A stretch of DNA of 64,000 nucleotides, taken from NCBI GenBank assembly GCA_036930585.1, contig GCA_036930585.1_3066.1. One strand, given 5' to 3'. The DNA is from a phage. The notes below the pieces were generated by a model. It saw only the letters and a program-made list of their open reading frames with translations. It ran no database searches and was not told the DNA's origin. Position 1 is the stretch's first letter. Every line of letters starts with the position of its first letter. The position numbers and the translations under genes are program-made. Shown here one piece after another: positions 229 to 1,970 of the stretch.

Positions 229-627
229 TCAGCCTTCATCAACAATAGTGTGAGTATTAGCATTTACGATTTGCCACCAATCAAAGCGATTAGAATCCAT
301 CGGTTTGTTTTCATTTTCTTTGATAATGTCACGGAGTTCATCTTCAGAGAATGCTTTAGCGATTAAATCGGTATACCCACCACGTGGATAATAATTATCA
401 CCTGCAAACAAAAGGAAATTTACCTTCCCGGAAGGAACATACGCTTCCTTAGGATACTTGTTTCCTGCGTGGTCAACCACTTCAATATAACGGTAAGGAA
501 TATCGGTTCTTTCAACCCATTGCCATGCCGCTGCAGGGGAATCGAAAGCATCTACACCTAAACGATTATCTTCATCTTTAGACGGATTATTTTCGTAATC
601 CGCATATACATAATATTCAACGTTCAT
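229..627 (-). CDS. hypothetical protein (132 aa)
   Basis: ORF track; start overlaps stop of upstream ORF (TAATG); no recognisable motif. Confidence 0.5.
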   Translation of the reverse strand: MNVEYYVYADYENNPSKDEDNRLGVDAFDSPAAAWQWVERTDIPYRYIEVVDHAGNKYPKEAYVPSGKVNFLLFAGDNYYPRGGYTDLIAKAFSEDELRDIIKENENKPMDSNRFDWWQIVNANTHTIVDEG

Positions 628-812
628 TATTCACCTTTAGAAATTTTATCCATAACAATAGCAATTAAACCAATTAAAAATGCTACTACAAGTGAAAACA
701 CATTTTCTGCTGTAGTCAATAATCCACATATAAATCCAACAAACATTGAAAAACTAAAAGCGGAAGCAGAAATTGCAATAGCAACATTTCGAATTAATTC
801 ACAACGTTTCAT
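627..812 (-). CDS. small hydrophobic protein, two predicted transmembrane helices (61 aa)
   Basis: ORF track; two hydrophobic stretches; RBS GAGGAGAATAAAATG; sits directly downstream of an early-promoter stem-loop. Confidence 0.5.
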   Translation of the reverse strand: MKRCELIRNVAIAISASAFSFSMFVGFICGLLTTAENVFSLVVAFLIGLIAIVMDKISKGE

Positions 813-870
813 TTTATTCTCCTCAGTAGTAGATAGGGTAATAGTATCACTACCCTATCTAAAAGTAAAC
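813..870 (-). promoter_or_regulatory. early-promoter stem-loop module (PeSL-like): GTTTAC -35, extended -10 TGATACTAT inside a 10-bp inverted repeat
   Basis: Plus-strand gtaaac at 865-870; inverted repeat agatagggta/taccctatct (831-860) with loop atagtatcac; orientation matches downstream minus-strand gene. Confidence 0.45.
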
Positions 871-1104
871 TTATTTTTTACGAAAAATTGATTTATTTTC
901 TGCTGCCCATTTTTCAATAACTGCAGCAGGACCAGTAACAACAATTTTATCACCGTAATCTTCTGCGGCGAGTTGACCGAAATTATCTAATGCATCACGA
1001 AGAACTCCATGAGGCATTTCACCCATTTTATCTTTCTTGCCAGTGTAAATAAACTCAACTTTTACATCAGCAGTTTCAGCAATAAATTCTTGGTAAGTTT
1101 TCAT
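871..1104 (-). CDS. internal-protein-like small protein with capsid-targeting-sequence-like N-terminus (MKTYQEFIAE); track ORF extends to 1116
   Basis: N-terminus MKTYQEFIAE matches the T4 internal-protein capsid targeting sequence as I recall it; ends in I-A-E, a gp21-protease-type site; located in the IP position next to 57B. Confidence 0.6.
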   Translation of the reverse strand: MKTYQEFIAETADVKVEFIYTGKKDKMGEMPHGVLRDALDNFGQLAAEDYGDKIVVTGPAAVIEKWAAENKSIFRKK

Positions 1105-1116
1105 TTTGATTTCCAT

Positions 1117-1180
1117 TTGGTTTTGTTTTGATAGGGTAATAGTATCACAACTAAAACCCTATGTAAACAACTTTGTGAAA
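1117..1180 (-). promoter_or_regulatory. early-promoter stem-loop module (PeSL-like)
   Basis: gtaaac at 1163-1168 (minus-strand GTTTAC), TGATACTAT -10 in loop of inverted repeat atagggt/accctat; near-identical 35-bp box tgtaaacaactttgtgaaattattttaaatcttct shared with 1491-1525. Confidence 0.45.
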
Positions 1181-1438
1181 TTATTTTAAATCTTCTAATC
1201 GTTTCTTCATCTTAGAACCATTTTTAGCAATTTCTCCTGCATCGGAGCATAATGCTAAAAGTGCTTTAACTTTAGTTTGGTCTCCTTTAAAAGATGAAGG
1301 ATCGACCGCAGCAGCAAGTTCTTTAATACGAGAGAAAAGACGCTCAGCTTCAGCTAAAGCCATTCCAAGCTTTACTTCCATACCGTGGGAAGATTCAGTG
1401 ATAGTAGTTTTTGTAGCAAACTCTTTGAAAGTTTTCAT
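1181..1438 (-). CDS. internal-protein-like small protein (85 aa) with CTS-like N-terminus MKTFKEFATK...ITE
   Basis: ORF track; N-terminal similarity to CTS pattern MKT(Y/F)(Q/K)EF; I-T-E candidate gp21 cleavage site; RBS AGGAAA upstream. Confidence 0.55.
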   Translation of the reverse strand: MKTFKEFATKTTITESSHGMEVKLGMALAEAERLFSRIKELAAAVDPSSFKGDQTKVKALLALCSDAGEIAKNGSKMKKRLEDLK

Positions 1439-1455
1439 TTTTATTTTCCTAATTA

Positions 1456-1511
1456 ATTTTGATGAGGTAATAGTATCACTACCTCATCAGTATGTAAACA
1501 ACTTTGTGAAA
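1456..1511 (-). promoter_or_regulatory. early-promoter stem-loop module (PeSL-like)
   Basis: gtaaac at 1494-1499; inverted repeat gatgaggt/acctcatc (1461-1488) enclosing GTGATACTATTACC. Confidence 0.45.
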
Positions 1512-1970
1512 TTATTTTAAATCTTCTGCCCAATCGAGTTTAAGAGGCTCTTTGTATTCACGGTCAAGTACAACCGGAATTTGTACATCACCGCTAAATG
1601 ATAAGGGCCCAACATTATAAGACAATGTTATATGCGGTGTGTAATCATCAAAATCGTGTGTAGCACCTAGTGCCCGCGCATACATGTGTCGACAGCGCAG
1701 ATATTCAGAATCTAGCACAAGTACAAGAGTCGATCCATCTTGTGTTTTCCACACTTCTAAATGTCCAGAAGAAGCTACTTCAAAACTTCCACTCGATGGA
1801 ACATATGGAACATTTACTCTTGAATAACATATAGTCGAATGAATTTTTTCTCTAGGAACTGGATTAGGAACACGTAAAGAGCGCTGGAGTTCTTCCAGCG
1901 CGTCAAGTGTTAATTCTGAAAACTTAGCTGCTACATAAAGACCCGTTGAAAAGTCTTTAAATTCCATCAT
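1512..1970 (-). CDS. 57B: gp57B-like conserved protein
   Basis: 152 aa, position upstream of 57A/gene 1 as in T4. Confidence 0.7.

Follow-up and report, generated by a model that had tools for sequence, protein, structure and literature searches.

Variation at the internal-protein (ip) locus of T-even phages was reportedly described by Repoila in 1994, as later papers relate. Both the locus and its cassette arrangement are already published, in the 1985 T4 record, in Repoila 1994 and in papers on promoter-early stem-loops (PeSLs) from 2010 and 2014; the locus is a textbook case of T-even phages exchanging small injected host-range and anti-restriction genes, and spotting one in another genome is routine annotation. 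In T4 it holds a single cassette, ipI, between gene 57B and trna.4, with the promoters PE2 and PE1 and stem-loops, and the product IPI (Pfam IPI_T4) inhibits GmrSD-CT596. Ten residues, MKTYQEFIAE, suffice for targeting to the head; the targeting sequence has its key aromatic residues at positions 4 and 7, processing depends on residues 8 and 10, and the protease gp21 cuts after L/I-x-E (PMC9026906). The mature form, IPI*, begins directly after ITE19 (PDB 2JUB). A second T4 ip locus, between denV and e, encodes IpII and IpIII and also has promoters with the -10 in a hairpin loop. Each of Ip1, Ip2 and Ip3 of T4 inhibits one distinct GmrSD enzyme, one variant within a very diverse type IV restriction family, GmrSD-ECOR21 being the target of Ip2 and GmrSD-ECOR17 that of Ip3 (PMC12373910). 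The PeSLs of RB49/phi1, PST/T4 and nt-1/KVP40 consist of an early promoter, a stem-loop, a Shine-Dalgarno sequence and an ATG, and cluster in hyperplastic regions beside indels.

The window, the whole 64,000-nucleotide stretch of phage DNA analysed here, is on its sequence a Tequatrovirus genome: in a nucleotide comparison, positions 1-3000 were 99.8% identical to many Tequatrovirus genomes. Two minus-strand ORFs are labelled ip5 and ip6 by annotators. They occupy the interval from 57B to trna.4, the very place of ipI in T4, as anticipated by an earlier note on this DNA that had placed them in the hypervariable internal-protein locus adjoining 57B. The upstream flank, 57B (1512-1970, minus strand), encodes Acb1, an anti-CBASS phosphodiesterase (Pfam PF23474, E=2.5e-60). 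It has the same gene name in T4, T2 and JK38, is conserved, and its terminal codons (EDLK-stop) open the repeated unit described below. The T6 ip locus (AP018814) has the same gene order and the same promoter/hairpin modules, but the DNA around it reaches only about 93% identity, which rules out that the window is T6 itself; WL-3, JK08 and Elenatom, among others, are closer, at 99.8%. The T4 locus shares the flanks and the logic of a propeptide ending in I-T-E, whereas it carries one cassette and the window two unrelated ones. This is the polymorphic ip locus of T4-like phages in the T6-type order 57B(Acb1), ip5, ip6, trna.4, and we consider highly probable a reading with modules of the PeSL kind, cassettes swapped by homologous recombination, and Ip5 and Ip6 proteins that would be packaged, processed, injected and directed against host defence.

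The earlier note had placed three promoter-driven small ORFs in the cassette locus, of which only two are cassettes. The third ORF is trna.4 (627-812, minus strand), which encodes a 61-aa hydrophobic protein (phrog_1692, function not assigned; labelled a putative membrane protein in the T2 record). We dropped it as a cassette: it lacks a targeting sequence, a nearly identical copy occurs in each of the 18 loci compared, and it forms the conserved downstream flank, preceded by the equivalent of T4 PE1.

The two cassettes encode small proteins with existing names. The 85-aa product of ip5 (1181-1438, minus strand), an internal head protein precursor, and the 77-aa product of ip6 (871-1104, minus strand), an internal protein precursor, fell in similarity searches into the PHROG families 'internal head protein' (phrog_3499, 1.2e-49) and 'internal virion protein' (phrog_8111, 1.2e-52), respectively. 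For ip6, an 81-aa version starting at an in-frame ATG at 1116 was set aside in favour of 77 aa, as no Shine-Dalgarno sequence precedes that start, which JK38 and 303Ecol101PP lack. Ip5 is identical to the T6 ORF (85/85, 100%) and is named in UniRef and GenBank (T2 ip5; RB70 Ip5, Q38378); Ip6, named by UniRef, is one residue apart from its T6 counterpart (76/77). The suggestion that these proteins might be uncharacterised fails as to naming, since UniRef, GenBank and T6 already have them as Ip5 and Ip6. Both are real genes, because ip6 has a dN/dS of 0.14-0.30 and ip5 differs from its relatives by synonymous changes only; 269 records contain ip5 and 231 contain ip6.

As the note had remarked, the proteins are unlike IPI: neither Ip5 nor Ip6 matched the IPI_T4 profile (PF11634), whereas T4 IPI, run as a control, scored 7.3e-54. 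Sequence searches of Pfam, NCBIfam and the PDB returned nothing significant for Ip5, Ip6 or trna.4, and a search of 5.8 billion proteins found homologues of Ip5 (5 clusters) and Ip6 (11 clusters) in close T-even relatives only, too few for deep alignments. The AF2 model of Ip5 is a helical hairpin (pLDDT 71), for which every Foldseek match had E of 0.5 or more, and that of Ip6 is an alpha/beta fold (pLDDT 83); these predicted folds were uninformative and gave no functional lead.

The N-termini of both proteins carry the hallmarks of T4 internal proteins. Ip6 begins with MKTYQEFIAE, identical at 10/10 positions to residues 1-10 of T4 IpII and IpIII, whose mature sequences are unrelated to it and whose genes lie at the other locus. 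Ip5 begins with MKTFKEFATK, of which MKTFKEF equals residues 1-7 of T4 IpI and includes the aromatics F4 and F7. These starts, and the I-x-E sites, had been picked out by the note and stand confirmed as IAE10 in Ip6 and ITE15 in Ip5, and in a six-frame translation of the whole window ip5 and ip6 were the only ORFs with a start of this type. I13-T14-E15 is invariant across the Ip5 family, as IAE10 is within the Ip6 family; Ip5 has further sites of this type at LAE30 and IKE40. ITE15 is the equivalent of the ITE19 cleavage site of T4 IPI, and the N-terminus of Ip5 resembles the IpI propeptide. The predicted propeptides are residues 1-15 of Ip5 (MKTFKEFATKTTITE) and residues 1-10 of Ip6, leaving a predicted mature Ip5* of 70 aa and basic (pI 9.2) and a predicted mature Ip6* of 67 aa that, at pI 6.5, is close to neutral, whereas the classical internal proteins are basic. 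The same genome encodes the processing partners: gene 21, the prohead serine protease (31293-31931, plus strand; Pfam Peptidase_S77, E=1.5e-111), and the gp22 scaffold gene (31962-32771; T4_CASP, 5.7e-90). In the model that we favour, Ip5 and Ip6 would be made as precursors whose capsid-targeting sequences dock on the gp22 scaffolding core. The protease gp21 would cleave Ip5 after ITE15 and Ip6 after IAE10, and the mature products, about 7.5 kDa each, would remain inside the head and enter the host with the DNA. A search of the accessible virion-proteomics literature found nothing on Ip5 or Ip6 in heads; the one candidate proteomics paper made no mention of internal proteins.

Each of the three genes ip5, ip6 and trna.4 is preceded by a module of common design. 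A repeat search found a direct-repeat family of three copies (828-898, 1126-1196 and 1457-1527; 61-87% identity), along with inverted repeats: 830-840/851-861, perfect over 11 bp; 1460-1469/1480-1489, perfect over 10 bp; and 1123-1143/1150-1170, imperfect. Read along the minus strand, every module opens with the stop codon of the preceding gene and continues with GTTTAC, a spacer, TG-n-TACTAT and a Shine-Dalgarno sequence up to the ATG, with the -10 hexamer within the hairpin loop. Module A (1439-1511, core 1460-1499) has its -35 GTTTAC at about 1499-1493, a TG-extended -10 TACTAT at 1475-1470 and a 10-bp stem (1489-1480/1469-1460), followed by the Shine-Dalgarno sequence AGGA. Over 79 nt it does not differ from the module preceding T4 ipI, where the T4 record X03016 annotates a putative -35/-10 (PE2) plus a stem-loop. 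Module B (1105-1180, core 1131-1168), upstream of ip6, has its -35 at about 1168-1162, the -10 TACTAT at 1144-1139 and a 7-bp stem, ATAGGGT/ACCCTAT (1162-1156/1137-1131), with a larger loop; in its 5' part it exactly matches the module preceding trna.4 in T4 and ime09. Module C (813-870, core 830-870), the counterpart of PE1, has its -35 GTTTAC at about 870-864, the -10 TACTAT at 846-841 and an 11-bp stem (861-851/840-830), followed by GAGGAG as Shine-Dalgarno sequence; at the equivalent site X03016 annotates PE1 plus a 'pot. IpI terminator' stem-loop.

This anatomy is of the PeSL kind. The PST/T4 PeSL consensus, TTTACW-N16-18-TAYWAT, had 5 matches in the 64-kb window versus 0.95 +/- 0.95 in shuffles, and three of the five are the modules of this locus, which fit TTTACW-N17-TAYWAT. 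A perfect stem of at least 6 bp surrounds the -10 in 4/5 matches, versus 0.02 in shuffles; the ip6 module has its 7-bp stem in a shifted register. A stem-loop (stems of 7-11 bp), a Shine-Dalgarno sequence and a start codon complete the 3' end of each module, and the RNA fold energies of the three are -17.4, -19.5 and -19.8 kcal/mol. Thus, repeat search, folding and consensus scan agree with the note's account of three modules, each with a minus-strand GTTTAC -35 and an extended -10 in the loop of an inverted repeat, and each ahead of a small ORF. In the published PST element, the stem-loop lies just upstream of the promoter, whereas here the stem arms flank the -10. Among distinct homologous modules, 29/30 folded around the -10 with z < -2, and 8/10 stem pairs showed changes on both sides, with a covariation score reached by 1/500 shuffles; because the modules fold and their stems covary, we take the hairpin to be under selection. 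On this anatomy, each gene would have its own sigma-70 T4 early promoter, with the extended -10 in a hairpin loop and, downstream of it, a Shine-Dalgarno sequence and the start codon, and would be expressed immediate early. In addition, a motif search located the late-promoter consensus TATAAATA within gene 1 (2553-2560, minus strand), at the T4 PL1 site that X03016 annotates as 'pot. -10 region (PL1)'. This late promoter is the likely source of late read-through over 57A-57B-ip5-ip6, and would probably add such transcripts at the time of prohead assembly.

We compared the content between 57B and trna.4 in 18 loci. The note had proposed such an alignment across T4-like genomes as a check, and it showed conserved flanks with combinatorial content. 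The locus contains ipI alone in T4, Phaginator and NiC89; ip5 alone in ime09; ip6 alone in OES_C-1; and ip7 alone in JoYop. Pairs are formed by ip5 and ip6 (the window, JK08 and T6), ipI and ip6 (JK38, 303Ecol101PP and KAW1E185), ip5 and ip7 (T2), ipI and ip7 (EC.W14-2 and ATK47) and a 90-aa ORF and ip7 (IME340), and TH57 has five ORFs with a targeting sequence. The ip5-ip6 configuration itself was found at a query coverage of at least 80% in 161 records. In comparisons with ime09, OES_C-1, T4 and T2, the breakpoints lie within the modules, as at the indel boundaries of PeSLs: the ip6 indel relative to ime09 is bounded by a shared GATAGGGTAATAGTATCAC, and the ip5 indel relative to OES_C-1 by a 113-bp repeat (1084-1196/1418-1530). 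The modules preceding ip7 in T2, EC.W14-2 and IME340 are chimeric, with the two hairpin arms mismatched. The recombining unit is larger than the repeated module of about 60 bp described by the note, and spans about 110 bp, beginning in the final codons of the preceding gene and reaching into the targeting-sequence codons. We propose that this repeat, which flanks every cassette and comprises the last upstream codons, the promoter/hairpin, the 5' UTR and the targeting codons, would serve as a substrate for homologous recombination, through which co-infecting relatives may add, delete and swap cassettes. The principle is analogous to that of integron cassettes, which are tandem, exchangeable single-gene units bounded by hairpin-forming repeats at a fixed site; the ip locus, by contrast, is without an integrase or attC/attI, has a promoter for each cassette, and apparently exchanges them by homologous recombination over about 20-110 bp.

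The idea that promoter stem-loops mediate shuffling is borne out in that the breakpoints fall within the modules, but not as regards the hairpin itself as the recombination site: the OES_C-1 crossover is upstream of the -35, and the hairpin therefore need not be that site. With a probability that we place a little short of even, the hairpins act chiefly at the RNA level, as attenuators, stabilisers of 3' ends or processing sites in read-through RNA, and shuffling is ordinary T4 homologous recombination anywhere in the repeat of about 110 bp; this would bear on mechanism only, and not on the identity of the locus. Crossovers are indeed scattered, some in the region of the -10 and 3' arm (ime09, T2 ip7) and the OES_C-1 one in the shared 3' coding end and AATTTCACAAAGTTGTTTAC. 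The annotation of one stem-loop as a potential IpI terminator in the T4 record points the same way. Moreover, the promoter's own transcript would begin within the 3' arm, so that the hairpin would be carried by read-through RNA only. Against an RNA-level role, no stem is followed by a U-tract (AAAATT, AAAACA and CTACTG follow instead) and a scan of the three modules for Rho-independent terminators came back empty, so we dropped the idea that the hairpins are intrinsic terminators. T2, EC.W14-2 and IME340 keep chimeric modules whose stems are broken, which indicates that an intact hairpin is dispensable for either role. A direct part for PeSLs in recombination gains from the excised mini-circles, with junctions between -10 and ATG, that inverse PCR has demonstrated for RB49/phi1 only (PMC2839356).

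With respect to function, the most likely role of each of Ip5 and Ip6 is to neutralise one particular first-line defence of the host, as their T4 counterparts do. T2 (Ip5 and Ip7) and T6 (Ip5 and Ip6) are restricted by GmrSD-ECOR21 and GmrSD-ECOR17 (PMC12373910), so that neither enzyme is blocked by Ip5 or Ip6 delivered in the natural way. Ten ip genes assayed against five further GmrSD systems had no target, Ip5 and Ip6 not being confirmed among the ten (PMC12373910). We tentatively raise the possibility, which we rate as somewhat unlikely, that Ip5 and/or Ip6 are injected inhibitors of a defence beyond the GmrSD variants tested, which could be another nuclease of the first response or an enzyme that recognises the sugar modification of T2/T6-type DNA. 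If so, they would represent two new anti-defence families, one with a helical-hairpin fold and one with a small ferredoxin-like fold. Targets for the remaining internal proteins would aid host-range prediction for therapeutic T4-like phages, a matter for experiments and not for more sequence analysis.

In our judgement it is unlikely that Ip5 and Ip6 are packaged but have a structural or assembly-related role, in DNA condensation, core assembly or ejection. T4 IpIII mutants assemble heads more slowly and have a smaller burst size (PMC9026906), mature Ip5 is basic, and the lack of a target for the ten ip genes could be read in the same way, with the same proviso as to their identity. However, mature Ip6 is not basic, and on laboratory hosts T4 can do without its three internal proteins, each of which has a target in host defence. 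Even very close relatives differ in which cassettes they carry, a pattern that suits accessory host-range genes better than a structural necessity. It is highly improbable that Ip5 and Ip6 are ordinary cytoplasmic early proteins whose N-terminal likeness is a by-product of a recombination repeat reaching into the coding region, for although the repeat does cover the first 15 or so codons and both genes have early promoters, residues 1-10 of Ip6 are the very sequence proven to suffice for head targeting and processing, the I-x-E motif stays constant amid variable propeptide residues, and the motif is limited to these two ORFs in the window. Ip5 and Ip6 are carried by about 230-270 sequenced phages, T2 and T6 included.

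Over its first 3 kb, the window is 99.8% identical to many Tequatrovirus (T4-like) genomes. The genes of the internal-protein (ip) locus and their neighbours (229-2922) all lie on the minus strand, in the transcriptional order gene 1 (dNMP kinase, 2197-2922), 57A (1967-2197), 57B (1512-1970), an 85-aa ORF (ip5, 1181-1438), a 77-aa ORF (ip6, 871-1104), a 61-aa ORF (trna.4, 627-812) and a 132-aa ORF (trna.3, 229-627). The equivalent stretch of T4 reads 1, 57A, 57B, ipI, trna.4, trna.3, trna.2 and tRNA genes; with ipI between 57B and trna.4, it confirms the placement of the locus next to 57B. 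The 57B product (Pfam Acb1 PF23474, 2.5e-60), labelled 'RNA ligase' or hypothetical in many records, is the anti-CBASS phosphodiesterase Acb1. Because it lies directly 5' of the ip cassettes, a known anti-defence gene adjoins the cassettes of the presumed injected proteins. On the other side, the trna.3 N terminus has at least two divergent versions among close relatives (MNVEYYVYADYENNPSKDE and MSINEYYVYAGDYANPSHFE versus MYKVYADYQANPSEKP) and IME340 and T2 lack the gene, so this flank is also mosaic.

In PHROG, the products of 85 and 77 aa fall in internal head/virion protein families (1e-49 and 1e-52, respectively), and a homologue search returned 'Ip5 internal head protein' (T2; RB70 Q38378) and 'Ip6 putative internal head protein'; ip5 and ip6 are the names used in several GenBank records. 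T6 has exactly the arrangement of the window, with Ip5 identical at 85/85 residues and Ip6 at 76/77, whereas T2 carries ip5 then ip7. There are 269 phage records with ip5 and 231 with ip6, and both genes are under purifying selection (ip6, dN/dS 0.14-0.30; ip5, synonymous differences only). Some records start ip6 at an in-frame ATG 12 nt upstream (window 1105-1116; MEIK-MKTYQ) and so annotate 81 aa; protein clusters with lengths of 81-98 aa also exist. We prefer the 77-aa form, because the upstream ATG lacks a Shine-Dalgarno sequence and relatives do not have it. The 61-aa ORF, which the earlier note had counted as a third cassette, is T4 trna.4. Its product is hydrophobic, lacks a targeting motif and is near-invariant in every relative examined, and it is therefore conserved flank rather than cassette. 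The T6 record (1254-1439 of the T6 locus) labels this hydrophobic 61-aa peptide a 'putative Cro/CI-type repressor', a label that seems to be an annotation artefact; in the T2 record the protein is described as a membrane protein.

Each of the three small ORFs (85, 77 and 61 aa) follows a module of the same architecture, as had been claimed. A repeat search of the window found direct repeats in three copies (828-898, 1126-1196 and 1457-1527), inverted repeats of 11 bp (830-840/851-861) and 10 bp (1460-1469/1480-1489) and an interrupted inverted repeat (1123-1143/1150-1170). On the minus strand, all three intergenic regions run stop codon, GTTTAC, spacer, TG-n-TACTAT, Shine-Dalgarno sequence and ATG, and the -10 indeed sits in the hairpin loop (fold energies -17.4 to -19.8 kcal/mol). 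The published consensus of PST/T4 promoter-early stem-loops (PeSLs), TTTACW-N17-TAYWAT, is matched five times in the window, where 0.95 matches would be expected. Three of the matches are at the ip locus, and a perfect stem of at least 6 bp surrounds the -10 in four of the five, against 0.02 expected. Two TG-extended promoters were also found by a generic sigma-70 scan. Two further modules (55667-55694 and 59600-59628, both minus strand) lie outside the ip locus, between small ORFs downstream of gene 30 and close to cd. Both are PeSL-type elements, in which a stop codon and GTTTAC are followed by a stem of 8 or 7 bp around TGATATTAT, a Shine-Dalgarno sequence and ATG.

The hairpins are not canonical terminators, because no U-run follows the stems and a terminator scan of the three modules was empty. 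Folding around the -10 reached z < -2 in 29 of 30 distinct modules, the weakest folds being those upstream of ip7 in T2, EC.W14-2 and IME340. In the common register, 69% of cells pair, compared with 35-38% after sliding by one or two columns; both sides have changed in eight of ten stem pairs, and only 1 of 500 shuffles reached the observed covariation score. The stem sequences themselves diverge widely (GATGAGGTA, TAGATAGGGTA, GATGGAGA, GATAGAACTA and GGAATTGTGA), and it is therefore the pairing that is conserved; the hairpin may act in RNA, in DNA recombination or in both.

Variable content between conserved flanks, the expected pattern for a cassette locus, was borne out across 18 loci scored between 57B and trna.4. 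The content is ipI in T4, Phaginator and NiC89; ip5 and ip6 in the window, JK08, Elenatom and T6; ip5 in ime09; ip6 in OES_C-1; ipI and ip6 in JK38, 303Ecol101PP and KAW1E185; ip5 and ip7 in T2; ip7 in JoYop; ipI and ip7 in EC.W14-2 and ATK47; a 90-aa ORF and ip7 in IME340; and five targeting-sequence ORFs in TH57 (Gaprivervirus). These last are tandem ORFs of 110, 90, 99, 92 and 77 aa (2746-4289 of the TH57 locus), of which the 99-aa and 90-aa ORFs abut the preceding gene, with no recognisable promoter/hairpin in between.

Breakpoints fall inside the modules. Homology to ime09 covers 596-853 and 1128-2300 of the window, so the ip6 indel is bounded by a shared GATAGGGTAATAGTATCAC; homology to OES_C-1 covers 1-1196 and 1418-2300, so the ip5 indel is bounded by a 113-bp repeat (1084-1196/1418-1530) that takes in the end of the preceding reading frame, the promoter/hairpin, the 5' UTR and the opening codons of the next. 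Both 57B and ip5 end in EDLK-stop with identical DNA (AGAAGATTTAAAATAA; 1181-1196 and 1512-1527) that runs into the module. The recombination repeat therefore extends into the 3' coding ends, in what looks like the footprint of a past exchange. The module before trna.4 in T4 and ime09 equals the ip6 module of the window up to CCCTATCAA and, beyond it, the trna.4-type sequence of JK38, T6 and ATK47; such a hybrid is what a crossover within the -10/3'-arm sequence common to both would be expected to yield. In T2, EC.W14-2 and IME340, the module that precedes ip7 combines a 5' arm of one type with a 3' arm of a different type.

All cassette products in the 18 loci start with MKT[FY]xEF or something close to it, and [LI]-x-E lies at positions 8-10, except in IpI and Ip5, where it lies at 15-19. 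In a six-frame translation of the 64-kb window, only the 85-aa (MKTFKEFATK) and 77-aa (MKTYQEFIAE) ORFs have such a start, and the suggested capsid-targeting N termini gain support from Ip6, whose residues 1-10 are those of T4 IpII and IpIII. Ten N-terminal residues of IpIII are enough for head incorporation, residues 4 and 7 serving targeting and 8 and 10 processing, and gp21 cleaves after L/I-x-E (PMC9026906). T4 IpI starts MKTFKEFTSTTTPVSTITE, then ATLTSE; the 76-residue chain of the IPI* structure 2JUB begins ATLTSE, and IpI is therefore cut after ITE19. Ip5 starts MKTFKEFATKTTITE, then SSHG, and in its family the propeptide varies whereas I13-T14-E15 and everything beyond are invariant, in line with the proposed gp21-type sites. 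Predicted mature Ip5 has 70 aa (pI 9.2) and Ip6 67 aa (pI 6.5), and the window encodes both the gp21 protease (Peptidase_S77, 1.5e-111) and the gp22 scaffold. From these sequence features, we infer that Ip5 and Ip6 would be packaged, cleaved and injected; we found no literature report of proteomic evidence for either. Beyond the window start, past the tRNA genes, JK08 has two more targeting-like ORFs (1-524 and 650-1123 of its locus; MKTYAEFLTEA, 174 aa, and MKSYTQFLNEA, 157 aa), each with L-x-E at 8-10, which are probably additional internal-protein genes.

Early promoters by themselves would not supply a prohead component. Gene 1 contains a late-promoter consensus, TATAAATA (2553-2560, minus strand), which corresponds to PL1 of the T4 record X03016 (1985). 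That record already annotates early promoter PE2 and a stem-loop before ipI, and PE1 and a stem-loop ('pot. IpI terminator') before ORF2, which is trna.4; the promoter/stem-loop pairs of the T4 ip locus have thus been annotated since 1985. The cassette locus is real and the earlier note's interpretation is right, and both are already known. A 1994 abstract by Repoila reportedly describes a flanking sequence of about 70 bp, with an early promoter and an overlapping inverted repeat. As later papers describe it, the 1994 study reported at least ten Ip genes, marked by a characteristic N-terminal signal, and put forward a shuffling mechanism for the locus (Repoila et al. 1994). Such elements were later generalised as PeSLs, and mini-circle excision was demonstrated in RB49/phi1 (Arbiol 2010; Comeau 2014).

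Neither Ip5 nor Ip6 matches IPI_T4, the Pfam family of T4 IpI, whereas T4 IPI does, consistent with the earlier remark that they are unlike IPI; PDB sequence searches with both returned nothing significant. The Ip6 model is a small beta-alpha-beta-beta-alpha-beta domain (pLDDT 83) with only generic structural matches, and in the Ip5 model (pLDDT 71) a disordered propeptide precedes a helical hairpin that has no meaningful match. Ip1, Ip2 and Ip3 inhibit a different GmrSD type IV restriction enzyme each, with no cross-protection (Silas et al. 2025, PMC12373910). T2 (Ip5 and Ip7) and T6 (Ip5 and Ip6) are restricted by GmrSD-ECOR21 and GmrSD-ECOR17 (PMC12373910), and therefore neither enzyme is the target of Ip5 or Ip6.
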